Positions 12,689-60,514 of a DNA stretch of 64,000 nucleotides are shown here, piece after piece. Both the position numbers and the translations under genes were made by a program. Every line of letters starts with the position of its first letter. The first letter of the stretch is position 1. The notes under the pieces were generated by a model. The model was not told where the DNA came from. It ran no database searches and saw only the letters and a list, made by a program, of their open reading frames with translations. Origin of the DNA: a virus (lineage: Duplodnaviria > Heunggongvirae > Uroviricota > Caudoviricetes). Location: the IMG/VR virus record IMGVR_UViG_3300033068_001655; one strand, written 5' to 3'.

Positions 12689-13714
12689 ATGGTTAAAAAT
12701 AATGAATCTAAAGTTGAAATAACAACAAGAAATAAAAAATATTATAATGATAAAAATTATAATTGTAATGTAGGTGATGTTATAGCAATAGACGTAACAA
12801 CAATGTCTAAAAAATCTAAAAATGTAGTCATTGCTATTTGTGAAATATGTGAAGGTGAAAATGAATTATCATTCGTGAAGTATAATATAAATATTGAAAG
12901 GGGAGGTTTTTACTCTTGTAAGAAATGTTCTGATGTTAAAAGAAGAAAAACAACATTTGAGAAATATGGTGTTGAATATATAACTCAACTAAAAGAATTA
13001 AAAGAAAAACAAAGTAATTGGATGTCTTCTAAAGAATTTAGAGATAAATCTAATAAAACACAAATAAATAAATATGGTAGTTTATTTGTACAAACTGATG
13101 ATTTTAAGAAGGATAATTCAGTTAAAATGAAAGAAAATATTAAAAAGAAAAAAGAAAATGGTGAATATTTTACTTTTTTATCATCTAGCGGAAATAATGA
13201 ATTAAAAAAGAAAGGTATGTTTAATAAATATGGTGCATCATATTCATTTCATATACCCGAAATTAAAAAGAAGATACAAGAAAGTAATTTAGAAAAATAT
13301 GGTCATATATCACCATTTGGTAATAAAGAAATACAAGTTGGTATAAAGAATAATATAATTTATAAAAGTTTAGAAAAGGAATGGACTTTTAATGGTGATA
13401 AATACAAATTAGATTTATTTAGAATTTATAGAAGAAAAGTTAGATACGAAACAGACCTTTTAAGAGAAAAGTTATTTAGTGAATGGAATGGTTATGATTA
13501 TTATGATAATGAATATATTAAAGATAATTTCAATCTAAATAAAAATGATAATAACTATCCGTCAATAGACCATAAAATTTCTTGTTTTTATGGATTTATA
13601 AATAATTTAGATACTAGTATTATTTCAGATATATCTAATTTATGTATAACTAAGAGAATTATAAATAGTAAGAAAAGTCAATTAAATGAAGATGAGTTTA
13701 TAAACAAGAGTTAA
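12689..13714 (+). CDS. Free-standing HNH-type homing endonuclease with K-T-x-x-E-K-Y-G repeats
   Basis: CxxC pairs, KTTFEKYG/SNLEKYG repeats, C-terminal SIDHKIS...NLCITKRIINSKK. Antisense to the structural operon. Confidence 0.7.
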   Translation: MVKNNESKVEITTRNKKYYNDKNYNCNVGDVIAIDVTTMSKKSKNVVIAICEICEGENELSFVKYNINIERGGFYSCKKCSDVKRRKTTFEKYGVEYITQLKELKEKQSNWMSSKEFRDKSNKTQINKYGSLFVQTDDFKKDNSVKMKENIKKKKENGEYFTFLSSSGNNELKKKGMFNKYGASYSFHIPEIKKKIQESNLEKYGHISPFGNKEIQVGIKNNIIYKSLEKEWTFNGDKYKLDLFRIYRRKVRYETDLLREKLFSEWNGYDYYDNEYIKDNFNLNKNDNNYPSIDHKISCFYGFINNLDTSIISDISNLCITKRIINSKKSQLNEDEFINKS

Positions 13715-13955
13715 ATACATCAATAGTTTGAGTATATGATAGACCTGATAATTCACCATGAAATTTTTTCAAAAATTCATCTCTCATAGTATTTATATCA
13801 CTATAGTAATTATCATCACTCATGTGTGTAAATTTTGATGATAATTCAATATGTGAATTGTTATATTTATATTCATCTACCCAGTCAAACATTTCTTGAT
13901 TAGGCAAATCACCATCAACATAAAAAAAACTTTTATAACCTTCTAAGTATTTCAT
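13698..13955 (-). CDS. Hypothetical protein (MKYLEGYKSF N-terminus)
   Basis: 85-aa ORF in the operon. Starts with a variant of the shared N-terminal motif. Confidence 0.65.
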   Translation of the reverse strand: MKYLEGYKSFFYVDGDLPNQEMFDWVDEYKYNNSHIELSSKFTHMSDDNYYSDINTMRDEFLKKFHGELSGLSYTQTIDVFNSCL

Positions 13956-14365
13956 TATTTGTTTATCATTTTAACGACTTCCATAAAAGCTCGTTCTGTC
14001 CCTTTAATTACATATTCATATAATCCAAACGCATTTACTTCTGTTGGTGATTCGTCATAAAACTTTATATTATTTAGAATCTCATCAATATCATTTCTGA
14101 ATTTTAAGTAAAAGTCATAAATATCAGAATCATTTATAAATCCTTCAACTTTAACATCTTCAGGGTTTTTCTCAAATGACTCAATAAATGATTTTAGCTC
14201 ACCACCGTTTTTTTGGATAGTGTTTTCAATCATTTTCTGAACTTCTTCCATAACTTCTGGATACTTAGAGTTATCTAAAGTTTTAATACCTTCTGGTGTA
14301 GTTTGCTCAGTTGGTTGCTGTACTTCCTCAGCTTCGTTTATAAATTGTGAATATCTTTTTAACAT
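13955..14365 (-). CDS. Acidic hypothetical protein with capsid-targeting-like N-terminus
   Basis: Starts MLKRYSQFINE. Confidence 0.7.
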   Translation of the reverse strand: MLKRYSQFINEAEEVQQPTEQTTPEGIKTLDNSKYPEVMEEVQKMIENTIQKNGGELKSFIESFEKNPEDVKVEGFINDSDIYDFYLKFRNDIDEILNNIKFYDESPTEVNAFGLYEYVIKGTERAFMEVVKMINK

Positions 14366-14377
14366 AATCTATATATT

Positions 14378-21362: not shown

Positions 21363-22595
21363 ATGTGGACCAAAGAAGAAATAAAATACTTAATTGACAA
21401 TTATTCTAAGATGTCAAATAATGATATTGGTTTAAAATTAAATAAGAGTAAAAAGTCAATCGATTCTAAGGCAATAAAACTTGGTCTAAAAAAAGATAAT
21501 GATTATGTATCGAATATAAATAAGAAAAGAGTTTTGGATAGATGGGGTGATAATATATGGACTAAAGAAGATATTGACTTTTTGGTTACAAATCTGGGTA
21601 ATTTATCAAATTCCGAAATTTCAAAAAAACTAAAAAAAACTACTGCATCAATAAGTTCTAGAATTGGTTTACTTGGATTAAAAAGAATATCTAAATATAA
21701 TGATGAGTTTATAGAAAAGGAACGTTTAAAATATATAACTAAAAGAGAATTGAATTTAATGGATCCTAATTTGTATGCTTGGTTATATAAAAAGAAGAAA
21801 ATGTCAGATTTTTCAAAAGACATGTTGTCAATATCATATAGTACACCACAATTGATATTAAAATATATTTTAGTAAACCTATTAGGTGATAATATGAGAT
21901 ATAATGATAGAAGTGTTATAAAGCCATATGAAATAGATATTTACTATCCTGTATATAAATTAGGGTTTGAGTATGATGGAATGTTTTATCATAAAGACGA
22001 AGACGATAAATTTAAACATAAACTATGTAAAGATTTAGGTATTCTACTGATAACAATTGATGAATTGAAATTGGTTAAGAAAAATTTTATAAATTATGTT
22101 ATGAACATAAAGGAACAATTGATTGATAATTTAGAAATCTTAAATAGTTATTTAAGACTTAATATCGATAAAAATGACATTTTATCTATTCCGATAGATA
22201 ATAAGGAAGTTTTTAAAGGGTTATTTGATATAAACAAATTCAGAACAATCTGTAATGAATATGATGATTATAGTAAATTTATAAAAGAAAGAAAATCTAT
22301 TTACAATAAATTATATTATTTAGGATTACTAGAAGACTTTACAAGTCATATGAAAGTGTATAATACAAAAACAAATGAAGGATTAAAATTCATTTTAGAG
22401 AAAAGAGAATTTTATAAAAAAGGGGATCAAATATTGATAGAATATTGGTATAATAGTATGATAACCCCTTGTGTCATAATAGACATAGTTGGTAGAAAGT
22501 TTAAAGTAAGTCATGATGTAGAAGGTTCTGAAATAAAAAATGCCCCAGATGAAGTAGTTAAATCATCTGATATAATAGATAAATTAAAGAAATGA
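21363..22595 (+). CDS. PD-(D/E)XK endonuclease with N-terminal WTxEE HTH repeats and a C-terminal SH3/Tudor-like tail
   Basis: WTKEE/WTKED repeats; EIDIYYP..KLGFEYDG.FYH; tail KKGDQILIEYWYN...V..D..G..FKVSH. Confidence 0.7.
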   Translation: MWTKEEIKYLIDNYSKMSNNDIGLKLNKSKKSIDSKAIKLGLKKDNDYVSNINKKRVLDRWGDNIWTKEDIDFLVTNLGNLSNSEISKKLKKTTASISSRIGLLGLKRISKYNDEFIEKERLKYITKRELNLMDPNLYAWLYKKKKMSDFSKDMLSISYSTPQLILKYILVNLLGDNMRYNDRSVIKPYEIDIYYPVYKLGFEYDGMFYHKDEDDKFKHKLCKDLGILLITIDELKLVKKNFINYVMNIKEQLIDNLEILNSYLRLNIDKNDILSIPIDNKEVFKGLFDINKFRTICNEYDDYSKFIKERKSIYNKLYYLGLLEDFTSHMKVYNTKTNEGLKFILEKREFYKKGDQILIEYWYNSMITPCVIIDIVGRKFKVSHDVEGSEIKNAPDEVVKSSDIIDKLKK

Positions 22596-22822
22596 AATTA
22601 AAAAAATTTAATGAAACACTAGAGAATAAAAGATTCTTTTTTGACCAAGATTGTTCAAGTCATTGGTATATGGTTCCTGTTGATTTAAAAGATGAGTGGA
22701 GAAGACTAAATACTGATGATGAAGATGATTATGAGACAATTAGTGAATTTGAAGATGTCTTTGGACAATATAGTTTAGGAGGTGGTATTAGTCACATAAC
22801 ATTTGAAAATCCGATAAAATAA
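22592..22822 (+). CDS. Acidic hypothetical protein with capsid-targeting-like N-terminus
   Basis: Starts MKLKKFNETLE. ATGA overlap with the upstream gene. Confidence 0.7.
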   Translation: MKLKKFNETLENKRFFFDQDCSSHWYMVPVDLKDEWRRLNTDDEDDYETISEFEDVFGQYSLGGGISHITFENPIK

Positions 22823-22848
22823 AAAACCCATCATAAGATGGGTTTTTT
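22821..22848. terminator. Bidirectional intrinsic terminator
   Basis: aaaaaacccatc-ataa-gatgggtttttt between convergent genes. Confidence 0.85.
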
Positions 22849-22849
22849 A

Positions 22850-24058
22850 TTAGTCTAACATTTGCTCTACTAAACACTCGTAGAAAAATCTATCATAATC
22901 GTTGTTTTCAACATCTAAGTATTGTTCTTTAATGATGTCAAGTTCTTCATCTTTTAGTTTAATACCATTGTACTTAGTTAAAAGCCAATCGTATTGTTTA
23001 TCATTTCCAACAGAAATCTCAATTAAGTTATTTCCGTTGTCAAAGTAAGTTTTACCTTTTTTTGTTTTTTTACCACCTCTTCTAGTAGAACGTTTACCAC
23101 CATTTCTAACCATCATATCATCTTGGTCTTCCCAATCAGAGTAGTAGTCATAATCTCTATCTTTATTCTTAGTAGAACCACTTCTACTCCAAGAACTACC
23201 TGTATTAGAACGGTATGCAGTACCATAGTTACTCCAATCTGCAGGGTAATCACTTGTTGAATAAGAACTACTTGAGTAAGTAGATTTATAAGTTTTACCT
23301 TCGTAGATAGCAGGATCTCTTTTAGTTGGTAAGTTTTCCCAATCAACAGACAAACAAGCAGTTGATAAGTTTACTAAGTGTCTAATATCTTGATTTTCAT
23401 TTTTAGTGTGTTCTGAGTAATAACCAACAGAAACATTTGTACACTCTGGAATTAAATCTACGAACTCGGCAGAGTCAGTATAAACACCACCATCGTCTTT
23501 AATATATTTTAACTTATCTGATTTATTTAATTGTTGACATAATGCGTCTGCAAATACATCTGAACAACATCTTGCCCAAGATTGGTGTGTAATAATAGAA
23601 GTAGTACCACGTCTATCAAAAGAAATAATACGATCATATTTACCTTTAAATTCACCATATTTTGCAGCCAAACCAGAACCAATACAACCAACTTCTTCAC
23701 CAATGAAAAAGTAATAAGTTCCTGGAATGTTATGTTTCATCATCCAAATCATAATAGATACACCTGCTTTATCATCTGCACCAAGTGTAGTTGTACCATC
23801 AGTTCTAATAGTTTCACCATCAAGAACGTGTCTTACGTCTTCGTGTTTACTAGAAACGGTATCTAAGTGAGAAGCAAAAATAGTTCTTGATTCTCCAATT
23901 GAGTAGAAGTAATTTCCGTGAGTATCTTTATTAAGGTCTTTAGGTAAATAACCAGTTTTAACTAATTCATCGACAATGATATCCTCATAACCGTGAGGGT
24001 AAGTCTTTGAAGTCAGTTTTAAGAATAATTCAGGAATAAATTCGTTTACGTTTATCAT
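22850..24058 (-). CDS. M28/M20-clan zinc peptidase with low-complexity Ser/Tyr/Arg/Lys C-terminal region
   Basis: SHLDTV, GADDKAG, GEEVGCIGS, SFDRRG, YTDS, VGYYSEH. Confidence 0.85.
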   Translation of the reverse strand: MINVNEFIPELFLKLTSKTYPHGYEDIIVDELVKTGYLPKDLNKDTHGNYFYSIGESRTIFASHLDTVSSKHEDVRHVLDGETIRTDGTTTLGADDKAGVSIMIWMMKHNIPGTYYFFIGEEVGCIGSGLAAKYGEFKGKYDRIISFDRRGTTSIITHQSWARCCSDVFADALCQQLNKSDKLKYIKDDGGVYTDSAEFVDLIPECTNVSVGYYSEHTKNENQDIRHLVNLSTACLSVDWENLPTKRDPAIYEGKTYKSTYSSSSYSTSDYPADWSNYGTAYRSNTGSSWSRSGSTKNKDRDYDYYSDWEDQDDMMVRNGGKRSTRRGGKKTKKGKTYFDNGNNLIEISVGNDKQYDWLLTKYNGIKLKDEELDIIKEQYLDVENNDYDRFFYECLVEQMLD

Positions 24059-24075
24059 CTATTTTTTTATTTATA

Positions 24076-24083
24076 CAAATATA
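24076..24083 (-). promoter_or_regulatory. Bacteroidota-type sigma70 -7 element (TATATTTG)
   Basis: Matches TAnnTTTG, 17 nt upstream of the peptidase ATG. Confidence 0.6.
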
Positions 24084-24223
24084 CAACAAAAATTATAAAC
24101 AAACAACAATTTTATAATATATATTGTTATAGCTGTTATATAATTCATGTCGGGTATCAATAGGATACCTTTGAGATTTTAATTTAGAATCAAAGATATG
24201 GATAAAAAAATTAAAAACAAAAA

Positions 24224-25141
24224 ATGGCAAAGAAAACTGCAACAACTATTGTGGCACCAAGTGCTTGGATAGTTAATTCAAATGATAGAGGAAGAAAATC
24301 TGTCAAAAAAGGTAAAGTTTATCTTCAAGATAAAGAAGAATTTCAAATCGAACTTTACAATCCACTACAAAACTGCGTTTTAGCAGACATCAAATTAAAT
24401 GGTAATTCAATTTCTAAGTCAGGTTTAGTATTAAATCCTGGTCAAAGATTTTATTTAGATTGTTTTATTGATGATAAAAAGAAATTCATTTTCAATACTT
24501 ATGAAGTTGATGATAATGATGAAACCCAACAAGCTATTGCTAAAAATGGATTACTAGAAGTTTTCTTCTATAAAGAATCTGTTGTTACCTTAGAAAATTG
24601 GAATGATAAATTTAATCGTATTTTAACTGGTCGAACTTATCCATACTGGGTTTATCCTTGTTATCCTTGGGGTAGTATTTATTATGGTAATGGAACTACT
24701 GCAATTGGTGGTAGTTTAGCACATACTACTACAACAAATGGAAGTTTTGACTTAACAAATATTTCTAATAGTTCTTGTTCTTATTACTCTAATACTACAC
24801 CAATCAATGCTTCTTATACAAGTTCTATAGAAACTGGTAGAATCGAAAAAGGAGAGAAATCTCAACAAAAGTTTGAATCAATTGATATGGATTTTGATAA
24901 ATACTATATTGCTTCAACAATTTTACAAATTTTACCAGAAAGTAGAAAACCAGTTGAAACAAAAGAATTGAAAAAAGAAAGAAGAATTCAATCAGGTTTA
25001 TGGCCAAATCAGGAAAATTATAAGAATAAATCAGAAGATGTGATAGAACTAATAAAAAAACTATCAGAATTACACACTGCTGGTATACTAACAGACGAAG
25101 AATTTACAAATAAGAAAGCAGAATTACTTTCTAAAATATAA
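24224..25141 (+). CDS. Hypothetical protein with C-terminal SHOCT domain
   Basis: C-terminus IELIKKLSELHTAGILTDEEFTNKKAELL. Confidence 0.75.
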   Translation: MAKKTATTIVAPSAWIVNSNDRGRKSVKKGKVYLQDKEEFQIELYNPLQNCVLADIKLNGNSISKSGLVLNPGQRFYLDCFIDDKKKFIFNTYEVDDNDETQQAIAKNGLLEVFFYKESVVTLENWNDKFNRILTGRTYPYWVYPCYPWGSIYYGNGTTAIGGSLAHTTTTNGSFDLTNISNSSCSYYSNTTPINASYTSSIETGRIEKGEKSQQKFESIDMDFDKYYIASTILQILPESRKPVETKELKKERRIQSGLWPNQENYKNKSEDVIELIKKLSELHTAGILTDEEFTNKKAELLSKI

Positions 25142-25165
25142 TTAAACTAATAACAGCTATAGAAT

Positions 25166-25193
25166 AAAGAGGGTTTTTAACTCTCTTTTTTTT
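25166..25193 (+). terminator. Probable intrinsic terminator
   Basis: aaagaggg...ctctctt followed by a T-run. Confidence 0.55.
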
Positions 25194-25204
25194 ATATATA
25201 TGTT

Positions 25205-25714
25205 ATGAAGTACTTAAAAAAGTTTAACGAAAATAAGAATGTAATTGAAGATTTTTTCAAACCTTTAATCAATTTTGAATTGATTGATAATTTAGAAGCT
25301 ATGGTTGTTGAGTTTTTAGATGAAGATTGGACCTTATACTTAACTGTTAGATGTGATGGTAAAAATGGAGACACAAAACATAGTTGGAAACAAAATGAGA
25401 TTTATACATTACTGTATAATAGTGATAGAGAAAGTTACTCATATGGAACTATTGATTTATTTAAAAGAGAACATATACAAGGAATAGGAAGTGTAAAATA
25501 TGATCCATTTGAAGAATATGAGAAAAATGGATTAAACTATGTATTTTCAATACGTAAGAGAATTAGTTCGTCAATGGCAGCGGTTCATTTAGATCAATCT
25601 ACTATTATTTTAAAATCAATAAGAGCTTTATATCCGAATGAGAAAATAGATTTAGAATTAGATTTTGATGAAAGTTCAACATACCCTATAAATACAGAAA
25701 CAAATTACTCATGA
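25205..25714 (+). CDS. Hypothetical protein with capsid-targeting-like N-terminus
   Basis: Starts MKYLKKFNE. TATATA immediately upstream. Confidence 0.7.
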   Translation: MKYLKKFNENKNVIEDFFKPLINFELIDNLEAMVVEFLDEDWTLYLTVRCDGKNGDTKHSWKQNEIYTLLYNSDRESYSYGTIDLFKREHIQGIGSVKYDPFEEYEKNGLNYVFSIRKRISSSMAAVHLDQSTIILKSIRALYPNEKIDLELDFDESSTYPINTETNYS

Positions 25715-26157: not shown

Positions 26158-26181
26158 AAAACCATCATTAAGATGGTTTTT
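26156..26181. terminator. Bidirectional intrinsic terminator
   Basis: aaaaaaccatc-atta-agatggttttt. Confidence 0.75.
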
Positions 26182-45615: not shown

Positions 45616-47694
45616 TTATGAATTTCTTGCTTTTAATTCTTTAACATATTTTAAAGTTTCTGCTTTAGTTTCTGGACTACTACTTCTTGAAACATCTATC
45701 CATTCAAATAAATCATTCCAATCTTTTTCAGTATATTTTTTATAAACTCCAGTTTTTTCAAAATAATCTAAACATTCAGTTCTACCATAGTCAGTTGCCC
45801 ATTTAGTAATCATACCTCCTTTAAAGTAAAGTGTTTCTACAATATCTTTTCTTTCAAGGTATTTCATCATCATTAAGAATGATTCCCAATAAGGTTCTCC
45901 TTTTTTCTTAACTGCCGAACCTGGTGCATTTAATGTATCATAAGTACCTGAGAAACATTTTCTTAATGGCATGTTATGGCTAAATAATGGATCTAAACCG
46001 GCTTTCAAACAGTAATCAAGAGCTTCTGTATCAGGTACAACACTTTTGAATACGTCAGAAGTCATCTCTGAACCATAATCAACTAAAAGTTTGATCATTT
46101 TAAGATTAGTTGCTTTAGAGATAGGTGCATCTTTACCTTTTGTTAAGTTAGGTTGTCCACCTAATTTTAGGATTAGTTCTACTTTCTCATAATTATCTTC
46201 AGCAACTGCATTAAATAAACACTTACCATTATCTTTATTGATGTCTGCACCATATTCAGTAACATATTCAATAATTTTTGCAATACTTATACCTGGTTTA
46301 ACAATTTCTCTATTTGCTTCTTTAGCTTTTTGTCTTTTTCTAATTTCTTCACCATCCATTGGTAAGAAGAATGACCAAAGATCTTTATCAATATTATATT
46401 CATTTTCCCATCTTTTTAAGATGTTTTTAAACTCTTGAGTTGAAACTGAGTGGTCAGGTCTATTGTGACATGCTCTAACTCTTTGTCCTGGCTCAATTGT
46501 AATACCAATTGTAGAGAAGTTATCTCTTAAAGGCACGTGGAAATTATAAATATAATATTGTTTATTATCATGACTTTCTACATAATTATCCCATTGATAT
46601 TTACTATCTTTAATACAGTGAGAAGTGTGACCATTTATGATTTGATTTGCTGCAAATGAATTTACCTCTAAAATAAGAATACCATTCTCATTAAATACTT
46701 TCTCAACCCCTGCTGCTCCTAATCTTGCATTACAAGTAGTAATCAATTCATTAAATTTAGTGAAACCATCCATTTCATATGAAGATAAGTGACCATTTGC
46801 GGCAATAATAAATGCGTGAATGTTAGCATATCTTCTTAATGTTGATTGGTAAACCATTTTACCAAAAGTTGGATTTGGACTACCATCTGGTTTTAAAGGT
46901 CTTGTATCTGGTGCCATTCTACCAAAGAAGTCATCCCAACCTTTTTTAGCTTTAGCTTCATCATAAGTACCATCGTCATTTAAACCTAATTGTTCAAAAC
47001 CAACTGCTACTTCTAAAAACTTTTCTTTATTTAAGTCAGATGCTTCATCATATGATTTTTTTAACTCAGGAGTTAAAGTATCATACATTTTTTTAATCTT
47101 TCTCGATTGTTCTAATCTATCTAAACCATCTGTTAGTAACTCAACATTATTTGGTATATTTTCGTCAATAAAATTAGCATCAAATTGAACCTTTTTGAAA
47201 GTTCCTTTTGGATTCTCAATTGATAAGTTTTGTAAAATATCTTTATTTTGTAATAATCTTCTATAGATAATTGATAGTTCCTCTAATGGTACATTTTCAA
47301 AATAATAGAAATAAGTAAAGTTTGACAACCATCCAATATTATCTCTATCTAGTTGAAATTCTTTTACTCCTTTAGGACCTTTAACACTAGTTTTTAATCC
47401 TCTAACTGATACGAACTCAGGACTTCTTTCAAATGTTCTTAATAAATCAGGTGTTACTGAAATATCTCTAAGTTTCATTTTAAGTTGTTCTCTTTGTTCA
47501 GGTGCAAAGTCAATTAATCTAACAGATCTAATCTCTTTATGTTCTATTTGTGCACCTAATTCACCTTTAAGAATATCAAGTTCTTTTGCGGCAGTTAGTA
47601 AAACATATCTTTCTTTTAAGAATTTCTTAGCTTTATCTAAGTTCTCATTTAAAGTATCTGTTCCTAAAAATTGGTTATATTTAAAAAGTTTCAT
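45616..47694 (-). CDS. Ankyrin-repeat protein with capsid-targeting-like N-terminus
   Basis: GADINKDNGKCLFNAV..DNYEKVELILKLGG, LKMIKLLVDYGS, LDYCLKAGLDP. Confidence 0.7.
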   Translation of the reverse strand: MKLFKYNQFLGTDTLNENLDKAKKFLKERYVLLTAAKELDILKGELGAQIEHKEIRSVRLIDFAPEQREQLKMKLRDISVTPDLLRTFERSPEFVSVRGLKTSVKGPKGVKEFQLDRDNIGWLSNFTYFYYFENVPLEELSIIYRRLLQNKDILQNLSIENPKGTFKKVQFDANFIDENIPNNVELLTDGLDRLEQSRKIKKMYDTLTPELKKSYDEASDLNKEKFLEVAVGFEQLGLNDDGTYDEAKAKKGWDDFFGRMAPDTRPLKPDGSPNPTFGKMVYQSTLRRYANIHAFIIAANGHLSSYEMDGFTKFNELITTCNARLGAAGVEKVFNENGILILEVNSFAANQIINGHTSHCIKDSKYQWDNYVESHDNKQYYIYNFHVPLRDNFSTIGITIEPGQRVRACHNRPDHSVSTQEFKNILKRWENEYNIDKDLWSFFLPMDGEEIRKRQKAKEANREIVKPGISIAKIIEYVTEYGADINKDNGKCLFNAVAEDNYEKVELILKLGGQPNLTKGKDAPISKATNLKMIKLLVDYGSEMTSDVFKSVVPDTEALDYCLKAGLDPLFSHNMPLRKCFSGTYDTLNAPGSAVKKKGEPYWESFLMMMKYLERKDIVETLYFKGGMITKWATDYGRTECLDYFEKTGVYKKYTEKDWNDLFEWIDVSRSSSPETKAETLKYVKELKARNS

Positions 47695-47710
47695 TCAATT
47701 ATATTTATTT

Positions 47711-49471
47711 TTATCTTCTTGTGTGTTGGTTTTCGTTTATTCTTTCTAACTCTCTTAAATAGATTTCTGCACCTTCTTTAAGAAATCCACTAAGTCTTCT
47801 AACTTCATCATAATCACCTGCATCCAATGCAGTATCTATAAGATCTTGGATATCTCTTTTTCTCATCTTTGATAGATCATCATCTGAATAAACACCATCA
47901 TCTACTGGTTCTTCTTGTTTTGTTAAACCTAATCCTAAAGGATCTTCATCCTCTGTATCAGGTTCATCATAGTTAGCAGCTGGTCCTAATTTTTGTTCTA
48001 ATTCCCAATCTTTAATTGCTTTTTCATAAGCTTCTTCCGTATCTACAATATGTTTGATTAAACCTTCTATTACAGTTTTTGCCAATGATTCATTAAATCT
48101 TTCTTGATTGATTACAAATACTATTCTACCACGGTTACGATTGAAGAATCCACCATTACCTGCTTCAGTTGTTTTATCAAAAACTGAAAGTAAACTATTG
48201 AATACTTCTAAGAATTTTTCATCTGTTAAAGCTAAAGCTGCTTCTTTTTTAAGAGCATCTCCAACTTCCTTATTAGTTTTTGCAACTTCGTTTGCTTTTG
48301 CTGTCAATCTTTCTTTATCATTTGCTAAAAGTCTAAATACTCTAGTTCTCATTTGTTTATATTTTTGAGAATCTTTACAAGCATTGATAAAGTCATTAAA
48401 CATTGCTTGTGCAGTTACACCATATCTAAAATCTTGTGCTTCATCTAAGAATGAAGAAGTTGCAGCTTTTACTTTCTTAGCAAACTCTTTATCTTTTTTA
48501 ATTGCCGCAGATTGAATTAGTAAATAAATACCTTTAACTGTCTCGTGAATTAACATTGGAAAGTCAACACCAACAGCTTTAACAGTTATTTTTCTATAGT
48601 CTTGATTTTCTTTTAACAATTGAATTGAGAATGTACTGTTATTTATACTTTCCCAAGTTACATCAGTTGCACCTGCCATACCACCTGAGTTACCACTCAT
48701 CATTCTAGCTTTTTGTTGAATAGGAATAGCCCAGTCCATTTTATCTGCAATATCAGACATCTCACCCCATATTCTTAGAATTCTTTGTCCGTTATTACCA
48801 AATATTCTTTGTAAACCATCCTCAACAATAGGAGATGCTTTGATAATATCTTTAGTAGCTTTACCTTCTCCTTGTGTTAGCATATTAAGAATTTTCTTCT
48901 TCATTGCTGCATTTAAAACACTACCAGTAGGTTGTTCGTCCTCTGGAGTTTCATCATTATCTTCACCACCATCATTTGAACAAGATCCACCAGAACATTG
49001 ACTATCTTGATCTTCTTCGTCTTCATCATCACTTTCGTGTGTTTCATCCTCACGTGGATTTCTTTCTGGTGTTGGTGGAACATCTCCTAAATCGGGAACG
49101 TTTTGATTAACTTGACCAGGCATTACTAATCTTATATCAAGTTCAACTGGTTTTGAAGAAGCTTCTAAAATATCACCATATTCATCCATAATAACATCTT
49201 TTGCAAGATTTTGTATAGCTTCTACTCTTTCTTGCATTTGTGCTCTACCTAAAGGTCTACCGTCAGGTCCTTGCATCATCATTTGTCCAGATTGCATCAT
49301 TAGTTGATGAAATTCTGGCCAAAGGTGATTTCTTACTTGACTTTCGTCATCTGGTCTAACACCTAAGTTTCTTTCTGCTTCCTCTTCAGCATTTCTCATG
49401 AAATCTCTAGGAACTCCAGAATTACCTCTTAAATCTATTTCTTCTTTTATAAAATCGGAAAATCTTTTCAT
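47711..49471 (-). CDS. 586-aa hypothetical protein with capsid-targeting-like N-terminus and an acidic linker
   Basis: Starts MKRFSDFIKEE; FPMLIHETVKG segment. Confidence 0.7.
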   Translation of the reverse strand: MKRFSDFIKEEIDLRGNSGVPRDFMRNAEEEAERNLGVRPDDESQVRNHLWPEFHQLMMQSGQMMMQGPDGRPLGRAQMQERVEAIQNLAKDVIMDEYGDILEASSKPVELDIRLVMPGQVNQNVPDLGDVPPTPERNPREDETHESDDEDEEDQDSQCSGGSCSNDGGEDNDETPEDEQPTGSVLNAAMKKKILNMLTQGEGKATKDIIKASPIVEDGLQRIFGNNGQRILRIWGEMSDIADKMDWAIPIQQKARMMSGNSGGMAGATDVTWESINNSTFSIQLLKENQDYRKITVKAVGVDFPMLIHETVKGIYLLIQSAAIKKDKEFAKKVKAATSSFLDEAQDFRYGVTAQAMFNDFINACKDSQKYKQMRTRVFRLLANDKERLTAKANEVAKTNKEVGDALKKEAALALTDEKFLEVFNSLLSVFDKTTEAGNGGFFNRNRGRIVFVINQERFNESLAKTVIEGLIKHIVDTEEAYEKAIKDWELEQKLGPAANYDEPDTEDEDPLGLGLTKQEEPVDDGVYSDDDLSKMRKRDIQDLIDTALDAGDYDEVRRLSGFLKEGAEIYLRELERINENQHTRR

Positions 49472-49472
49472 A

Positions 49473-49664
49473 TTATTTAAAGTAATTATTTATTTCTTGT
49501 TTCTTTTCACCTGGTAGATCTTTGTAAAGTCTAGCAAATCTATCAATTACATCCTCTGCAGTTGCTTCTAAAATATCTTCTTCAACTACTGGGTTTACTA
49601 CCTTTGTAGGTGGTTCCATTGTAACTTCCTCAGTAAACATTTTATATTTTTTTATAAATCCCAT
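49473..49664 (-). CDS. Small protein with capsid-targeting-like N-terminus
   Basis: Starts MGFIKKYKMFTEE. Confidence 0.65.
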   Translation of the reverse strand: MGFIKKYKMFTEEVTMEPPTKVVNPVVEEDILEATAEDVIDRFARLYKDLPGEKKQEINNYFK

Positions 49665-49746
49665 AATAATGTTATTAAATTTTAATATATATATTAAAAA
49701 TTATATATCAAAAAATAATATATAAAGAAAAAATAATAAATTTATT

Positions 49747-50268
49747 ATGAGAAAATTTTCTACAATTAGAAAAATATACGAAGCAGATGAGGTAGTTGCT
49801 GCTAATCTTCCTCAAACTACTACTGAAGTAGATACAACTAAAGTTGAACAACCAGAACCTCAGCCACAACCAGAGACTACCGAAAATGCAGGTACTGCAG
49901 TTGCACTTTTTTCTAAGTTATTTGAATCAAGAGAAATGGCACATATCTACCACTTACAAGTAAATGGTGAACAAGGTTCTCATGCTGCACATAGTGCATT
50001 AAATGATTATTATGAAGGTGTATTAGATTTTATTGATGACTTAATTGAAACTTATCAAGGTCAATACGGTATTGTTGATGGTTATGAAACAATCGATACT
50101 ACCGAAACTAAAACTAAAGATAAGGTTGAATACTTTGAAGGTTTGGTAGAGTTTGTAAAACATGGTAGAAAAGCTATATCACTAGAAGATACACACTTAC
50201 ATAGTATAATTGATGATATTGTTGTTTTAATTTATAGAACTCTTTACAAATTGAAATTTACTAAATAA
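49747..50268 (+). CDS. Ferritin/Dps-like four-helix protein (DUF5856-like)
   Basis: AHIYHL...SHAAHSAL..YY...D..D.L.E..QG.YG...Y..LYKL. Confidence 0.7.
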   Translation: MRKFSTIRKIYEADEVVAANLPQTTTEVDTTKVEQPEPQPQPETTENAGTAVALFSKLFESREMAHIYHLQVNGEQGSHAAHSALNDYYEGVLDFIDDLIETYQGQYGIVDGYETIDTTETKTKDKVEYFEGLVEFVKHGRKAISLEDTHLHSIIDDIVVLIYRTLYKLKFTK

Positions 50269-50269
50269 C

Positions 50270-50299
50270 AAAAAAACCACTCAATTGAGTGGGTTTTTT
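50270..50299. terminator. Bidirectional intrinsic terminator
   Basis: aaaaaaaccactca-at-tgagtgggtttttt. Confidence 0.8.
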
Positions 50300-50511
50300 A
50301 TATCTATTGTTGTGTAAAAATTGTTGTTTACTTTTTTAGTTGCATATCTACTTTTCATTATACTTTCTGCCGATGACATTCCAAGTAATCTTCTAATTTT
50401 ACTTTTTCTAAAATAGTTTTTATATTGTATAGTAGTTATACTTTGTGTAGTCACATAAGGTACATAGATATATCCTGATTTCATACCTTTATCTTTTCTA
50501 CCTACTAACAT
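50281..50511 (-). CDS. 76-aa protein resembling the C-terminus of T4-like major capsid protein gp23, carrying an RKSKIRRLLG tag
   Basis: LVGRK...SGYIYVPYV...MKSRYA, compared with gp23 VG.K...G..YAPYV...KTRY. Confidence 0.55.
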   Translation of the reverse strand: MLVGRKDKGMKSGYIYVPYVTTQSITTIQYKNYFRKSKIRRLLGMSSAESIMKSRYATKKVNNNFYTTIDIKNPLN

Positions 50512-50632
50512 TAAATAATCTCTTTATTTTATTTTTTCTGTATGTAGGTCTCATTTTTAACCACATCATCCAACCAGTATTATACTGATTATTTATATTA
50601 TTAGTTCCTGGCCAACCTGCTGCAAATGACAT
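50498..50632 (-). CDS. 44-aa protein with RKNKIKRLF tag, missing from the ORF track
   Basis: MSFAAGWPGTNNINNQYNTGWMMWLKMRPTYRKNKIKRLFNVSR. Confidence 0.5.
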   Translation of the reverse strand: MSFAAGWPGTNNINNQYNTGWMMWLKMRPTYRKNKIKRLFNVSR

Positions 50633-50652
50633 ATTATTATATTATCTAAAAG

Positions 50653-50973
50653 TTATTTGTTTTCAGTATAAAGGTATTTTCTACCATCTTGGTTATATGA
50701 ATCTAAATTATTTACAACAGTATCTAATTTGTCTATACAATCATCCAAGTCTTTTTTAATAACTTGTAAAGCCGCAATTGAATCATCTATCTGGTCATTA
50801 CTTTTTGTAGAGTTATTTTTATAGTTACTTAATTCTGTACCAAGTGTATCTATCGTTTTTGCTTTATCTTCAACATTTGCGATAAAATCTTTTAACTCTT
50901 CCATCATTTCACCAATTCTTTCTGGAGAAATATCAACTTGTTCTTCACTTTCAAAAAATCTTCTTATTTTCAT
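50653..50973 (-). CDS. Coiled-coil protein with capsid-targeting-like N-terminus
   Basis: Starts MKIRRFFESEE; heptad-rich. Confidence 0.7.
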   Translation of the reverse strand: MKIRRFFESEEQVDISPERIGEMMEELKDFIANVEDKAKTIDTLGTELSNYKNNSTKSNDQIDDSIAALQVIKKDLDDCIDKLDTVVNNLDSYNQDGRKYLYTENK

Positions 50974-51007
50974 TTTGTTGGAATATAATTTTAATATATA
51001 TATTATT

Positions 51008-51691
51008 ATGAAAAGATCAAAATACTTAATAACCGAACTATCTGAATTTAATTTACAAAGAATGAATTCTGATTCTGTTCAAGCATCAGCACACGTTGAT
51101 GATCCTTCTTTATCTATTAACGCATTTGATAAGAATCAAGATATGATTAGACAAGCAATGTCTCGTATTAATGACATTATGTATAATTTGAAAGGAACTA
51201 ACGCATATAAAGCACTTAGAAGTAGATTAGCATTAGAAGATCAAGATATTACTGCATTAAAAGTTTTAAGAATCGTTAAATCAACATCATTAAAATATGA
51301 TGTTTATATCACATTTACAATTGGTGAAGAAGAATATTGGGGTGTAGTTGAAGATATAATGTCTACCTCACCAGAGTTTACATCAGAAGTTTTTAAAGAC
51401 TATGATCTATACCAACCAAAAGAGTGGATTATTAAAATAAAAGGTTTAGTTATTAAAACATTAAAAACTTGGTTGAAACCAGAACCAGGAACCTATAAAT
51501 TATTAAATAATGAAGTAATTTGCTACTCGGTTGAAACTGGAAAACAATTAAGAATGGAATCTGGAATTGAAATTGAAGTAATTAGAGCACATAGTGATAA
51601 GATAATTATAAAACATGATACTGATGTATATAACTTAGTTGGAGATAATTACATTTACTTCAATTGGTGGTTTGAGAAAATAGAAGAATAA
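51008..51691 (+). CDS. Hypothetical protein
   Basis: Likely start MKRSKYLITELSEFN at 51008, after TAATATATA. Confidence 0.7.
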   Translation: MKRSKYLITELSEFNLQRMNSDSVQASAHVDDPSLSINAFDKNQDMIRQAMSRINDIMYNLKGTNAYKALRSRLALEDQDITALKVLRIVKSTSLKYDVYITFTIGEEEYWGVVEDIMSTSPEFTSEVFKDYDLYQPKEWIIKIKGLVIKTLKTWLKPEPGTYKLLNNEVICYSVETGKQLRMESGIEIEVIRAHSDKIIIKHDTDVYNLVGDNYIYFNWWFEKIEE

Positions 51692-51723: not shown

Positions 51724-54700
51724 TTAAGGAATTACAAATTTTAAATTACCAGTAACACTCTCTCTATAAAGCATACCTATTGACAATTGAGTTTTTGCTA
51801 CTGCATTACTTCCATATTCAGGTATTGTTGTATTAAAAATTGTACCACCTGATAATTCTATATTTGTTCCGTCAACCCATAATAATCCAGGTTTAATACT
51901 TATATTTGTAAAAGGTAGTCTCTTATTACCATACCAATAATAATCACTCATATAGGAATTTATTATACTAAATCCATATAATGTAAATTTAACTGAGGAA
52001 CCAGCTGAATTTACAGCTTTTATTAAATAACCCCAAGGTTGTGAATTTAATTTTAATGATTTAAAATTGACTTGATGTGATATATATGGATTATTGTGTG
52101 AAATATTATAACTTACTTTAATATAATTATTATAAAATAAATTAGTAACAAATCCACCACCATTAGCAGAGAAACTACACATCTTACCATTGTATTGATC
52201 ATACGTATTAGTACCAGTATTATTATTTTCAAGAAACACAAATGAATCTGCACCACCTGCACTTTGACCAGTATTTTGTTGTGTATAAAAATCACCACCA
52301 TGTGAAAAACTAGAACCATCTTTTAGATAAACATCATATACATGATTACAAGGTAGATGTACTTTTCTAGTTTGTACTATTTCTCCATGAGTACCAGAGC
52401 TTAGTGTTGGTGTAGTGGAATTTCTTTTAAAGATATATCCTATTCTAACTGCAGCATTATTTACTGGATTTGAGATAGTATTTCCATCAGAATCTCTCCA
52501 AGTTCCTGATATTCCAAGTAGGTGCCAGTTATTGGTATTACCAAGTGTTACTATTTCATAATAAGTACCTGCCCCAGTATCTGTTATAGGATAACTCCAA
52601 CTACTTGGAATATATTTTACTTTAGAGTATATAACTCTTTGATAACTTCTTCTCATATATATTCTTCCATTATCAGAGTATATTCCTGCGTAATTTTTTA
52701 AATATATCATGTGTTGTTCAAAACTATTGACTTCTATACTACCATTGAGAAATAGTGACTCACGATAAGGTAGATTTCTACCCTCTACGTGAATTACACC
52801 ATAATCAGGAGTAAATGTTGTAATATGACCAAACATTTGTGTTCCTTCTCTATATATCGGTACATTATCTTCATCAGTTAAAGCAGTATAATTTACTGTA
52901 GTAGATGGTGAAAATGTTGTTGATGATGTTAGTGGGAAACTAATTGGTGCCGTTGTAGTTGTATTTCTAGTAACTGTATTTGAATTAAGAGTTGTTAAAT
53001 CAATATAAAGTTGATTTGATCCATTAGTGCTATATGTTATATATGGATCTCTATTAAATAGTTCTAAATTACTTTTTAAATTTGATAAAGTGATTGCGGT
53101 ACTTGTTCCTAATGGACATTGAGTGTTACTATTTATAGTTGCACTACTATTAAATGTTTTATCAAGCATCAATAGATCAGAATATGATTCACCGTTTAGT
53201 AAAATATCGTGTGTAAATTTTGTTCCAGTTGTAGGATTACCTGTTAGAGTTATTGTAAATCTCACTACTTTATTTTGTGGTGGTGTAGTCCCGTAAGAAA
53301 TATCAACACCTTGTGGTAATCTATCCATTTGTAAAAGGATACTACCTCCTACACTTCCTACAGTTAACGAACACCCGTTTTCTACAATAAAACTATTCAG
53401 TGTAACATTATTATAATCATAACTATTACTACCAACCGCTCTAAAAAACCCTTTTCTTTTTGGATGATTACTGTGAAATGTAAGTGTACCATTTCCTTCT
53501 ACTTTACAACTAATACTGTGGTTAAATTGCCCAGGTCCAGCAGGTCCTGAACTAGAAAAAGTGGTATCTGCCAATGCTCCAGTAACAAGTGGTTTCATAT
53601 CAAACATCCACTCTAAATTATTACCATCTGTAGTATCTGGTATATAAAGATGTGAAGAATAGCCACCTTTTTCTAAGAAATACGTTACACTATTTATTGC
53701 AAGATTTTCCTCTACCCATAAAAAAGATTGTATAACAACTCTAGTTGGGTTTAGATTTTGCCATTTTTCAATTGGGTTACCACCGTTTATAGCAGGATTT
53801 GGTATAATTGGTGGTGTTATTCCAGGATTTGCTCTATTTAAAATCTTATCAAGACATGCTTTTATACTTTTAAATGGTTTAGAACGAGTTCCTAACTCTT
53901 CTGTTCCTGGATATAAAGCATTTACATAATAATCAGTGCCTTCAAATGTAGCAGGAACTTCAACTTTTATAATACCTGAGTTTTCAGTAATTGCCAAACT
54001 ATCTGATGTAATTTTCTTAAATTTATGACGATAATCACTATCTAAACCATCATATACCTCAATACCAACACCTGAGAAAGTAACACCGGCTTTACTTTCT
54101 ATTCTAATATCATCAGTATTATCATCAATTTGAAGACCGGTTGATACTAATTGTTTAAATTGTAATGTTCCCTCACCAGTAAGTGGATCAATAGATATTC
54201 CTTGATAAACATTACCAGTTGATAGATTTGCGATAGCTGCCGTAGTAGGACTCAATGTTAAATTTGATGCACTAGTAAATGGCATTATTGTAGTAAGTAA
54301 ATCCCAAGTTGTAACACCAGATATATTCTTTAAAAGATATGTAAGTCCTGGTGTAAAAGGATTAGGTGGGGTTATTCTCGCTAAACTTAAATACCCAGTA
54401 GTTATATTAGGAGCATGTATATTAGTAATAAGACTTCCATTTCCTACAAAATTATTATTCGTTCTAATATTACCAGAAACGTGAAGTCCTGGAATAGTAG
54501 AACCTGGAGAAGGTGTTGTAAGACCCAATCCAATATGAGATAAGTTATCAAATAGTAAACTTTTTGTTAAAAGTGTTTGATTATTCGCAAATTTAACAAC
54601 ATAGTTCTCAAAACCGGTGTTACCTGTTGCAGCGTTTTCTACTAAAGCACCAGTTGTGTTTTCATTTATCCATTGAGTGCCATCCCAAACATAAGGAACA

Positions 54701-54885
54701 TTGACATTAAAATCCCAAATTCTAAGACCTGGATATTTATAAATTATATCTTCTTTATATTTATAAAAAGGTGTAGGATATAATGATGGGTTGCTGTTAG
54801 GCAAAGATTGAGAACCAACTACAAATCTATTATCTATAGGGTTATTTATATCTACTTGAAAATTATCTACTATTATTATTGACAT
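51724..54885 (-). CDS. 1053-aa putative tail fibre/spike protein
   Basis: Mosaic, beta-rich; YYVN...G.E..G....PFKSI motif typical of beta-helix N-caps. Confidence 0.6.
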   Translation of the reverse strand: MSIIIVDNFQVDINNPIDNRFVVGSQSLPNSNPSLYPTPFYKYKEDIIYKYPGLRIWDFNVNVPYVWDGTQWINENTTGALVENAATGNTGFENYVVKFANNQTLLTKSLLFDNLSHIGLGLTTPSPGSTIPGLHVSGNIRTNNNFVGNGSLITNIHAPNITTGYLSLARITPPNPFTPGLTYLLKNISGVTTWDLLTTIMPFTSASNLTLSPTTAAIANLSTGNVYQGISIDPLTGEGTLQFKQLVSTGLQIDDNTDDIRIESKAGVTFSGVGIEVYDGLDSDYRHKFKKITSDSLAITENSGIIKVEVPATFEGTDYYVNALYPGTEELGTRSKPFKSIKACLDKILNRANPGITPPIIPNPAINGGNPIEKWQNLNPTRVVIQSFLWVEENLAINSVTYFLEKGGYSSHLYIPDTTDGNNLEWMFDMKPLVTGALADTTFSSSGPAGPGQFNHSISCKVEGNGTLTFHSNHPKRKGFFRAVGSNSYDYNNVTLNSFIVENGCSLTVGSVGGSILLQMDRLPQGVDISYGTTPPQNKVVRFTITLTGNPTTGTKFTHDILLNGESYSDLLMLDKTFNSSATINSNTQCPLGTSTAITLSNLKSNLELFNRDPYITYSTNGSNQLYIDLTTLNSNTVTRNTTTTAPISFPLTSSTTFSPSTTVNYTALTDEDNVPIYREGTQMFGHITTFTPDYGVIHVEGRNLPYRESLFLNGSIEVNSFEQHMIYLKNYAGIYSDNGRIYMRRSYQRVIYSKVKYIPSSWSYPITDTGAGTYYEIVTLGNTNNWHLLGISGTWRDSDGNTISNPVNNAAVRIGYIFKRNSTTPTLSSGTHGEIVQTRKVHLPCNHVYDVYLKDGSSFSHGGDFYTQQNTGQSAGGADSFVFLENNNTGTNTYDQYNGKMCSFSANGGGFVTNLFYNNYIKVSYNISHNNPYISHQVNFKSLKLNSQPWGYLIKAVNSAGSSVKFTLYGFSIINSYMSDYYWYGNKRLPFTNISIKPGLLWVDGTNIELSGGTIFNTTIPEYGSNAVAKTQLSIGMLYRESVTGNLKFVIP

Positions 54886-56427: not shown

Positions 56428-56433
56428 TTCTTA

Positions 56434-58093: not shown

Positions 58094-58120
58094 AAAAAAA
58101 GTCCAACTTTCGTTGGACTT
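58094..58120 (-). terminator. Intrinsic terminator
   Basis: aagtccaac-tttc-gttggactt, with the T-run on the minus strand. Confidence 0.75.
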
Positions 58121-58123
58121 GTA

Positions 58124-58525: not shown

Positions 58526-58549
58526 TTTTAAACTTTTATTTTTATATAA

Positions 58550-59263: not shown

Positions 59264-59313
59264 AAAAGTATATATTAGTACTCCATGAGCCCCTAAAAAA
59301 TAATATATAACTT

Positions 59314-60078
59314 ATGATAATAGAATTTTTTAGAAGATTATTTGTAAGGAAGAAAAAAATAGACATTAAACTATTACCATCTCAAGGATTATTCTACAAA
59401 GAAGACTTTGAAGTGACTATTAGACCTGCAAGTAAAAAAGATATAGAAGATTACGAAAAAAACTATGTTAGAGATGATGTTGGTGTTGTAATCTATTACA
59501 TTAAGAAAGTAGTTGAAAGAAATATAACTTTGAGTAAAGGATATAAATATGAAGATCTTAAATCAATTGATGTTATATTTATTTTCTTGGAAATTGTTAA
59601 ACTAACAAAAGGTAGAGCAATAAATTTAGTTTTCTTTGATAAAGAAAAAGATAAAAATGAGAAAATTGAGTTTGGTACAAAAAACTTTAATTACTTTCAA
59701 TTAGGTGATTTAGTAAATTACTATGATTATAAAAATAGATGTTTTGTAGTTGATGGTTATAAATATACTTTGCCTTCTATTGGAGTTGAAAATAGTTTAA
59801 CTAACTTTTTGATTATAAAATCTGCTGAAGAAAACTCAGGAGTTTATAATACTTACTTTTATGATTTTACACACTTTGTAGGTCATAAGAACCACTTAAA
59901 ATATAGTGAAATTGAAAACCTTTTACAAATCTTTAACTTTGATATGGAGTCAGAAGAAGTAGTTAAAATCAAAAGAATTATAACAATGTTTGCACCTATA
60001 CAAAGATATTCACTAGTTAAAGATGGTAGAGTAATTGAAATGACATCTAAGATAAACCTTGAAAAAATCTGGAAATAA
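59314..60078 (+). CDS. T4 gp26-like baseplate hub assembly protein
   Basis: LLPSQGLFY...VTIRPAS..D...D...IFLEI pattern. Confidence 0.55.
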   Translation: MIIEFFRRLFVRKKKIDIKLLPSQGLFYKEDFEVTIRPASKKDIEDYEKNYVRDDVGVVIYYIKKVVERNITLSKGYKYEDLKSIDVIFIFLEIVKLTKGRAINLVFFDKEKDKNEKIEFGTKNFNYFQLGDLVNYYDYKNRCFVVDGYKYTLPSIGVENSLTNFLIIKSAEENSGVYNTYFYDFTHFVGHKNHLKYSEIENLLQIFNFDMESEEVVKIKRIITMFAPIQRYSLVKDGRVIEMTSKINLEKIWK

Positions 60079-60094
60079 TTTTAATATATAGTTT

Positions 60095-60514
60095 ATGAGA
60101 TATTTAAAATTATTTGAGAGTTTTAATGAAAATGAAATAATAGATTTTTGTGAAACATATCTAGCTTATTTGTTAGATGATACAACATTTAAGATTAGAG
60201 TATTGGATAATAGATATTGCTCTCAGGGTACTCAATATGGTGGAGGTGGTGTATCAGAAAGTTCTAATTCAGTACTTTCACTTTATAGAGAAAAAGACAC
60301 TTCTACATCAGGTATGCCACAACCAATGACATTTTACTGGAATGATATTAAAGATCGATTTATACCATTTCTAACTATGTTAGACAAGAGTTATGAAATT
60401 TTAAATATTACTTTTGCCAGTCATGTATTCTCATATAGAGATATTAAATTAGATGATATTGAAGATGGTGTTAAATTTGCAATTAGAAATATTATCATAT
60501 CAATAAAAAAATAA
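60095..60514 (+). CDS. Hypothetical protein with capsid-targeting-like N-terminus, paralog of 25711-26157
   Basis: MRYLKLFESFNE..IIDFCETYLAYLLD...WNDIKDRFIPF. Confidence 0.75.
   Translation: MRYLKLFESFNENEIIDFCETYLAYLLDDTTFKIRVLDNRYCSQGTQYGGGGVSESSNSVLSLYREKDTSTSGMPQPMTFYWNDIKDRFIPFLTMLDKSYEILNITFASHVFSYRDIKLDDIEDGVKFAIRNIIISIKK

Follow-up and report, generated by a model that had tools for sequence, protein, structure and literature searches.

Genes at the locus and their relatives

We analyzed a 64,000-nucleotide stretch of a Caudoviricetes genome (IMG/VR record IMGVR_UViG_3300033068_001655; "the window" denotes this whole stretch), in which about one in seven genes begins with a shared peptide of 8 to 12 residues, here called the tag. 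The window DNA has a guanine-plus-cytosine (GC) content of 26-39% and encodes collagen-like tail fibers, PhoH, a UvsX-type recombinase, a helicase, a Ro/TROVE-like RNA-binding protein and several homing-endonuclease-like genes. The nearest relatives were the uncultured huge phages LR745206 (634,780 bp) and LR756502 (642,428 bp), with a UvsX identity of 74%; LR756504, LR756501/3 (735 kb), LR756500 and the Lak phages were more distant. BLAST homologs in LR745206 were found for 35 of 74 window open reading frames (ORFs), arranged as syntenic blocks, and megablast of 12 kb of the window against phage records returned no match. All results on the head module given below come from the relatives.

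Tagged genes in the window

The initial annotation had listed about 17 gene starts of unrelated proteins as carrying a motif like the capsid-targeting sequence (CTS) of phage T4, MKTYQEFIAE (PMC8442874), and had written it as M-[KR]-x(0-3)-[KR]-[FY]-x-x-F-x(0-3)-E (hereafter the literal formula). Each of the 17 positions proved to be an ATG that opens a reading frame on the strand implied. The literal formula matches three of them (14365, 39725 and 49471), and a strict two-part definition (a basic/aromatic pattern at the N-terminus and, within 16 residues, [FY]-x(0-2)-E-[SENAD]) matches nine (14365, 25205, 25711, 29049, 39725, 45615, 49471, 49664 and 60095), to which loose patterns add three (22592, 39464 and 50973). 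In three variants (13955, 47694 and 49747) the Glu or the second aromatic residue is not at the expected place, and two further starts (26419 and 51008) are doubtful. With 12 solid cases the count of about 17 was somewhat high, and the formula as written covers few of the starts, although the looser motif is real; the description as unrelated proteins holds for the set but not for 25711 and 60095, the sole paralog pair among the 17. The genes are listed below, with a slash at the putative cut behind the tag.

13955-14365, minus strand: tagged gene (strict), 136 residues, MLKRYSQFINE/A with T4-like spacing (Y-x-x-F-I-x-E), followed by an acidic linker; the LR745206 ortholog retains the tag (MIKKYLQFIKE/A).
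25205-25714, plus strand: tagged gene (strict), 169 residues, MKYLKKFNE/N; TATATA 4-5 nt 5' of the ATG; no match in Pfam or PHROG.
25711-26157, plus strand: tagged gene (strict), 148 residues, MKYLKLFKE/S; paralog of 60095-60514.
28717-29049 (lower coordinate approximate), minus strand: tag-bearing start (strict), MRFLKRFKLYLE/S, 26-codon frame.
39725-39955, plus strand: tagged gene (strict), 76 residues, MIKRFNDFLKE/S with T4-like spacing; the LR745206 ortholog begins MIKKWNQFNES.
45010-45615, minus strand: tagged gene (strict), 201 residues, MKHLNTFKFFE/S.
47711-49471, minus strand: tagged gene (strict), 586 residues, MKRFSDFIKE/E; F4, F7, I8 and E10 coincide in position with Y4, F7, I8 and E10 of the T4 CTS.
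49473-49664, minus strand: tagged gene (strict), 63 residues, MGFIKKYKMFTE/E, a small acidic protein.
60095-60514, plus strand: tagged gene (strict), 139 residues, MRYLKLFE/S; TATATA 4-5 nt 5' of the ATG; paralog of 25711-26157.
22592-22822, plus strand: tagged gene (loose), 76 residues, MKLKKFNE/T; the phrog_12267 profile begins at residue 13, right past the tag.
39464-39709, plus strand: tagged gene (loose), 81 residues, MIIKSFEKFNE/G; TATATA 4 nt 5' of the ATG; the phrog_14149 profile begins at residue 19.
50653-50973, minus strand: tagged gene (loose), 106 residues, MKIRRFFE/S; the LR745206 ortholog begins MKIKRLYEN.
45616-47694, minus strand: variant tag, 692 residues, MKLFKYNQFLG...LNE/N, with the aromatic pair kept and the Glu shifted to residue 17; the ortholog begins MKLHKYNHFLG...LNE.
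49747-50268, plus strand: variant tag, 173 residues, MRKFSTIRKIYE/A, then a Q/T/P/E-rich linker and a Dps-like DUF5856 domain from residue 47-78 on (DUF5856 E 5e-15; phrog_858 over residues 47-172).
13698-13955, minus strand: degenerate tag, 85 residues, MKYLEGYKSFF, which has MKYL..YK.F as in the MKYLKxYKIFES class and lacks the Glu.
26168-26419, minus strand: doubtful, 83 residues, MKKFSES; matched by the weakest patterns only.
51008-51691, plus strand: doubtful, 227 residues, MKRSKYLITELSEFNLQ; the N-terminus is conserved in the ortholog and does not fit the tag.

Because about 95 open codons in another frame follow an A5 run behind the start at 29049, this locus is probably a tagged gene with a frameshift; the break could be a pseudogene, an assembly error or slippage. 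Nearly every gene of the block at 45010-51691 is tagged, and the block is syntenic in LR745206. It includes the 586-residue protein, whose family is found on contigs of up to 640 kb and whose first 35 residues are nearly invariant across 120 homologs, down to 46% overall identity. The AlphaFold model of this protein (predicted local distance difference test score, 66) has a low-confidence helix at residues 2-9; one uncharacterized phage protein was matched in BFVD and none in PDB, leaving the fold uninformative, and a search of the ESM Atlas gave no usable match. In the family of the 173-residue protein at 49747-50268, MKKFSTIRK(I/V)YE is kept and the linker behind it varies in length. Homologs are present in public metagenomes, on contigs 610-650 kb long.

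Frequency of the tag

The tag is real and lies far above chance expectation. Among the 2271 ATG triplets on both strands of the window the strict tag occurs nine times, always at an ORF start, and every strict tag in the window starts at the start Met. The pattern [KR][FYLI]x(1-3)Fx(0-3)E was present in 9 of 74 window N-termini, against 0.47 expected from protein-internal windows. The literal formula matched 30 of 925 genes in LR745206 (against 0.6 expected on internal windows and 2.9 on column shuffles, which retain the composition of each N-terminal column) and 0.05% of the spurious ATG ORFs of the same genome. A comparison with 1932 spurious ATG ORFs there showed the tag to be 10-63x commoner at true starts, and it was rare behind 3069 internal Met residues. 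An annotation-free count gave 0.141 tags per kb in the window, 0.142 in LR745206, 0.048 in LR756501, 0.053 in LR756500, 0.005 in Lak-C1 and 0.006 in T4. About 12-15 of 75 window genes and 80-127 of 925 LR745206 genes are tagged, and across LR745206 the tags form three sub-classes: MKYLKxF(N/E)E(S/N), MK(Y/H)LKxYK(I/L)FE(S/A) and M(I/L)xKKYxxF(I/L)xE. Explicit patterns were used in place of an expectation-maximization motif search on N-termini, which drifted to a generic amphipathic pattern (lambda 0.48).

Selection on the peptide and modularity

Synonymous codons within the tag (Lys, Tyr, Phe, Glu and Asn, and both Ser boxes, TCN and AGT) follow the usage of the genome, so selection acts on the peptide and not on a DNA or mRNA motif. 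The tag is a modular add-on carried by unrelated proteins: after removal of the first 20 residues, the 80 tagged LR745206 proteins fell into 74 BLAST-unrelated clusters, and orthologs retain the tag while the remainder diverges. PHROG profiles begin behind the tag in three window proteins (at residue 47 in 49747, besides residues 13 and 19 in the 22592 and 39464 products). An Rnl1-type ligase is tagged in LR745206 and has an untagged homolog in LR756501, the alignment starting at residue 16 of the former and residue 2 of the latter; likewise, a CCA-type nucleotidyltransferase is tagged in LR745206 and has an untagged homolog in Lak-C1, with the alignment starting right behind the tag.

Most tagged proteins are dark matter. 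Pfam and PHROG searches were blank for most of those in the window, where the only informative case was 49747-50268, with its DUF5856/phrog_858 domain and weak matches to Dps proteins only. Confident Pfam matches among the tagged LR745206 proteins comprise an Rnl1-type RNA ligase, a nucleotidyltransferase with a PolyA_pol head domain, a fusion of 2H-phosphoesterase and DEDD exonuclease, an M15 peptidase and DUF6576, and further matches to Acb1, DHH and MazE-like families fell under the Pfam cut-offs. LR745206 lacks an ortholog for seven of the 12 solid tagged genes of the window, which fits accessory cargo.

Comparison with the T4 capsid-targeting sequence and other targeting systems

By suppressor analysis of the T4 CTS, residues 4 and 7 serve targeting and residues 8 and 10 serve processing, and the T4 protease gp21 cuts after L/I-x-E (PMC9026906); giant-phage proteases likewise cut after Glu (PMC5694885). 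The tag retains the four residues mapped as functional in T4, namely the aromatics (4 and 7) and I/L-x-Glu (8-10), and the resemblance proposed in the initial annotation is borne out as a specific one. The T4 pattern is shifted by one residue in 13955-14365 and 39725-39955 and in register in 47711-49471. In 73 of the 80 tagged LR745206 proteins the tag Glu lies at residue 8, 9, 11 or 12. P1 is Glu by definition of this 80-tag set; 59 of 80 tags (74%) have F, I, L or Y at P3, and the P1' residue is one of Ser, Asn, Ala and Glu. Applied to T4 as a positive control, the tag pattern found ipII and ipIII and also gp61.1 (AF158101 18966-19130), a hypothetical protein of 54 residues with the CTS-like start MKTFKEFIKED.

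The tag shares with the T4 CTS (IPII and IPIII, with a related IPI propeptide) its form as an N-terminal peptide of about 10 residues on otherwise unrelated proteins, the aromatics three apart followed by I/L-x-Glu, the presence of a gp21-family protease in the lineage (here in relatives) and carriers that are variable accessory genes. In contrast, T4 has 2-3 carriers among about 260 ORFs where LR745206 has the 80-127 given above, the tag comes in several sub-classes, among them MKYLKxFxE with its T4-unlike spacing, and the protease-scaffold of the relatives repeats the tag core 10-14 times, which T4 gp21 and gp22 do not. The jumbo phages phiKZ, 201phi2-1 and SPN3US likewise have head proteins that are cut after Glu by a gp21-related protease and whose propeptides are thought to be prohead-targeting (PMC5694885). 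However, those propeptides of head and ejection proteins are mostly longer than 100 residues, are cut at A/S-x-E (PMC5694885), occur on 8-19 proteins and have no common N-terminal consensus, whereas the tag is 8-12 residues long with a hydrophobic P3 and a shared consensus; P3 is Ala in 2 of 80 tags and Ser in none of the commonest classes, unlike the phiKZ/SPN3US type.

As regards a Sec, Tat or lipoprotein signal, no hydrophobic core of at least 7 residues behind a basic N-region was seen in the tags (read from the sequences; no dedicated predictor was run), in which K/R, aromatic and acidic residues alternate and Glu stands at the end. Encapsulin cargo-loading peptides offer another parallel, being short terminal peptides that send diverse enzymes into an HK97-fold shell and allow cargo to be predicted from sequence. 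Unlike the tag, they have a different sequence, are usually C-terminal, bind the shell itself and stay uncleaved, and no virus or DNA is involved.

A prohead protease with tag-like repeats in the relatives

A Peptidase_S77 match was found in six of six relatives searched, in frames of 595-811 residues, and in LR745206, LR756502, LR756504 and LR756501 the S77/phrog_207 protease gene lies between those of the portal and the major head protein. The LR745206 protease matches phrog_207 (head maturation protease) with E 3e-30, is flanked by the portal (phrog_213) and major head protein (phrog_138), and can be aligned with T4 gp21 over the His and Ser motifs (GELNHP/GEFDHP and VSSRGLG/VSSRAAG). Its C-terminal tail consists of 10-11 tandem 14-residue units of the form N-I-x-Y-S-E-Y-I-A-E-N-L-D-K. 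The relatives' protease tails hold 10-14 such tag-like copies; LR756502, LR756504 and LR756501 conserve the repeats, LR756500 has them in degenerate form and Lak-C1 lacks them. When whole proteomes were scanned blind for [FY]xx[FY][ILVF]xE, this protease-scaffold ranked first both in LR745206 (11 of 63-64 internal matches, the total differing between two gene sets) and in LR756501 (14 of 41), and no tag-core array was found in T4 proteins. Second behind the protease-scaffold in LR756501 was the 1691-residue product of 21458-26533 (minus strand), with seven internal tag-core copies, which may be another scaffold-like or core protein.

Enrichment of the tag tracks the repeats: LR745206 and LR756501 show it strongly, LR756500 has a variant (MKYIK..Y..F..E) and Lak-C1 shows none. 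The co-occurrence is no more than suggestive, because the repeats represent one evolutionary event and Lak-C1 is one negative genome.

Promoters of tagged genes

Upstream of LR745206 genes, TATATA peaks 10-11 nt and 26-28 nt 5' of the ATG, and the motif also stands 5' of the portal, protease and head genes. A TAATATATA-type motif ends 4-5 nt 5' of the ATG in about 100 LR745206 genes; upstream examples in the window are 2109-4469, 1589-2086, 25205, 39464, 51724-54885 and 60095, and a Shine-Dalgarno sequence is not visible before most genes. With the motif so close to the ATG, leaderless or nearly leaderless mRNAs would result. A second motif, TAnnTTTG(T/A)A, lies in the window 5' of 22850-24058, 29075-31282, 34093-34728 and 42923-43375, where it precedes a peptidase-like gene, a helicase and others. 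It resembles Bacteroidota housekeeping promoters (-7 element), a hint that the host may belong to the Bacteroidota and that its polymerase may transcribe an early class of phage genes.

Transcription units headed by [TA]ATATATA contain 72 of the 80 tagged LR745206 genes and 40% of the untagged ones, whereas TAnnTTTG units contain none of the 80 and 18% of the untagged (Fisher P = 6e-11); the difference in promoter class was replicated in LR756501 (P = 0.011). Tagged genes are thus not host-promoter early genes. In the window almost all genes, UvsX and PhoH included, belong to the TATATA class, and since most genes share it, promoter class cannot split tagged from untagged genes there. The motif described in the initial annotation as a late-type TATATA before tagged genes is therefore present but common to most window genes, and the label "late" is unsupported: TATATA also precedes UvsX and PhoH and no homolog of T4 gp55 was detectable in three relatives, so late timing is not established.

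Interpretation of the tag

We favor, with modest confidence, the reading that the shared N-terminus is this lineage's counterpart of the T4 CTS, that is, a tag for prohead targeting and cleavage, employed on a scale without precedent. In this scheme, a short amphipathic peptide of basic and aromatic character (M-K-Y-L-K-x-F-x-E, M-K-Y-L-K-x-Y-K-I-F-E or M-I-K-K-Y-x-x-F-I-x-E) would dock the protein that bears it onto the scaffolding core of the assembling prohead, and in close relatives this core would consist at least partly of the long C-terminal tail of the gp21-type protease, with its 10-14 tag-like units. Once the shell had assembled, the protease would cut behind the Glu (hydrophobic-x-Glu, then Ser, Asn, Ala or Glu); the tag would be lost, and the cargo would remain beside the DNA within the head. 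These steps, from docking and cleavage to virion retention and delivery to the host, are ones that we infer from sequence comparison, and the tag may mark proteins carried into the host. The initial annotation had read the set as packaged and injected effectors of host takeover or anti-defense; this reading is partly supported, in that the likeness to the T4 CTS is borne out, but an effector role would be conjectural for the window proteins, of which a single one has a meaningful domain match. One copy each of the 80 tagged LR745206 proteins amounts to 17,819 residues, or about 2 MDa; as SPN3US is reported to carry ejection proteins of more than 40 MDa in total (PMC7411985), capacity is no obstacle.

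A more specific version of this scheme, which we put forward tentatively and consider somewhat unlikely as a whole, takes the tag to be a single copy of the scaffold's repeat unit. Cargo would co-assemble with the 10-14-unit array and be released by the fused protease, and about 100 proteins per genome (RNA-repair enzymes, the 2H-phosphoesterase/exonuclease and the Dps-like protein among them) would be delivered pre-made with the DNA.

Several points weigh against a CTS counterpart. The tag is too short to prove homology with the T4 CTS, and the T4 spacing occurs in part of the set only, the aromatics of the MKYLKxFxE class being four apart and not three. The match to the repeats counts as one evolutionary event and not as 11, the absence of the tag in Lak-C1 is that of a single negative genome, and the protease-scaffold gene is seen in relatives only, outside the window. 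TATATA precedes methylase and endonuclease genes in the window as well as UvsX and PhoH, and the search of three relatives for a gp55 homolog was negative. Finally, the lineage is known from uncultivated genomes alone, and about 100 cargo species per genome would be far beyond any known phage.

Among the alternatives, the one that survives best, although we judge it improbable, is that the tag is a lineage-specific N-terminal signal for another purpose and resembles the T4 CTS and the scaffold repeat by convergence. It could mark proteins for recognition or degradation by a protease or chaperone of phage or host, serve as an assembly handle for some other structure that the phage builds, or act as a regulatory helix at the N-terminus. 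Short aromatic helices that are amphipathic and end in Glu could arise more than once, and the tag is only 8-12 residues long; yet the positions conserved here are the four that matter in the T4 CTS, and in each of two divergent genomes the prohead protease-scaffold is the one protein that repeats the core of the tag. Some tagged enzymes (the RNA ligase, the nucleotidyltransferase and the 2H-phosphoesterase/exonuclease fusion) could work in the cytoplasm, the TATATA promoter is not specific to structural genes, and the number of cargo species would be unprecedented; against this stands Lak-C1, which is without both tag and repeat.

Less probable again, in our estimate, is that the tag does target the prohead core but that its carriers are mostly parts of the core, scaffold or an internal body (like T4 gp67 and gp68 or the phiKZ inner body) and not injected effectors, being degraded or kept with the DNA without acting on the host. 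The Rnl1-type ligase, the CCA-type nucleotidyltransferase and the 2H-phosphoesterase/DEDD exonuclease fusion of LR745206 are hard to read as structural proteins, and the share of solid tagged window genes lacking an LR745206 ortholog (7 of 12) is as expected for accessory cargo. What speaks for such a role is that several tagged window proteins are small, acidic or of low complexity (49473-49664 and the linker of 49747-50268), that the mostly tagged block at 45010-51691 is conserved in synteny, and that one member is Dps-like, a DNA-binding fold.

That the motif is a by-product of codon bias rich in adenine and thymine (AT), of initiation constraints where mRNAs are leaderless or have no Shine-Dalgarno sequence, of paralogy or of a recombination DNA cassette is very improbable: the genome has a GC content of 27-29%, all bacteria commonly have Lys at position 2, TATATA lies only 4-5 nt 5' of the ATG in many genes and 25711 and 60095 are paralogs, but spurious ORFs and internal Met residues of the same DNA are almost never tagged, column shuffles give 2.9 matches against 30 observed, tag codons (both Ser boxes included) are those of the genome, the 80 tagged proteins form 74 unrelated clusters, and close TATATA occurs in only 30% of tagged genes and in 90 untagged ones. 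AT-rich codon bias, which the initial annotation had named as the explanation that could overturn its claim, fails because Lak-C1, at 25.7% GC more AT-rich than the window, is without the tag; the spurious ORFs and codon use contradict it too. Codon bias, paralogy and a nucleotide cassette were accordingly rejected on the shuffles, the spurious-ORF control, codon usage and the 74 clusters among 80 proteins.

No paper connecting huge phages with capsid targeting was found in the searchable literature library. Should the tag function as it does in T4, sequence could be enough to list the proteins that uncultivated huge phages package and probably inject, for a clade in which nearly all genes are of unknown function; such a list would point to proteins acting before any phage gene expression. 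The mechanism, known in T4 from three proteins, would then cover about one-tenth of the proteome of a 630-kb genome. Were the tag also the scaffold repeat unit, the injected proteome of a whole clade of huge phages, all uncultivated, could be readable from sequence alone. The scaffold with its tag repeats suggests a concrete docking partner for the CTS, one as yet undefined in T4, and the tag is a candidate handle for loading foreign proteins into large capsids.

Other features of the window

The tail-fiber module at window positions 1-8800 (2109-4469 and neighbors) has collagen-like repeats and a higher GC content (38.6% in the first 4 kb), is without a homolog in LR745206 and looks like a swapped host-recognition cassette. 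Three repeated small-gene families look like mobile endonuclease cassettes dispersed across the region: Cys-rich endonuclease-like paralogs, 43-51% identical, at 33350-34075, 44142-44927 and 62513-63136; two homing-endonuclease-like paralogs at 12689-13714 and 31297-32298; and three short basic ORFs beside endonuclease-like genes at 32295-32462, 32565-32753 and 62334-62516. The Ro/TROVE-like RNA-binding protein (60540-61988, minus strand; phrog_850, E 9e-45) is 76% identical to its LR745206 ortholog. LR745206 has two paralogs of the phrog_4191 "peptidase" (202934-204292 and 276022-277188; Pfam blank), one of which lies directly 3' of the major head gene, between two tagged genes; the window gene 22850-24058 is the ortholog of the other and is preceded by the host-type promoter.

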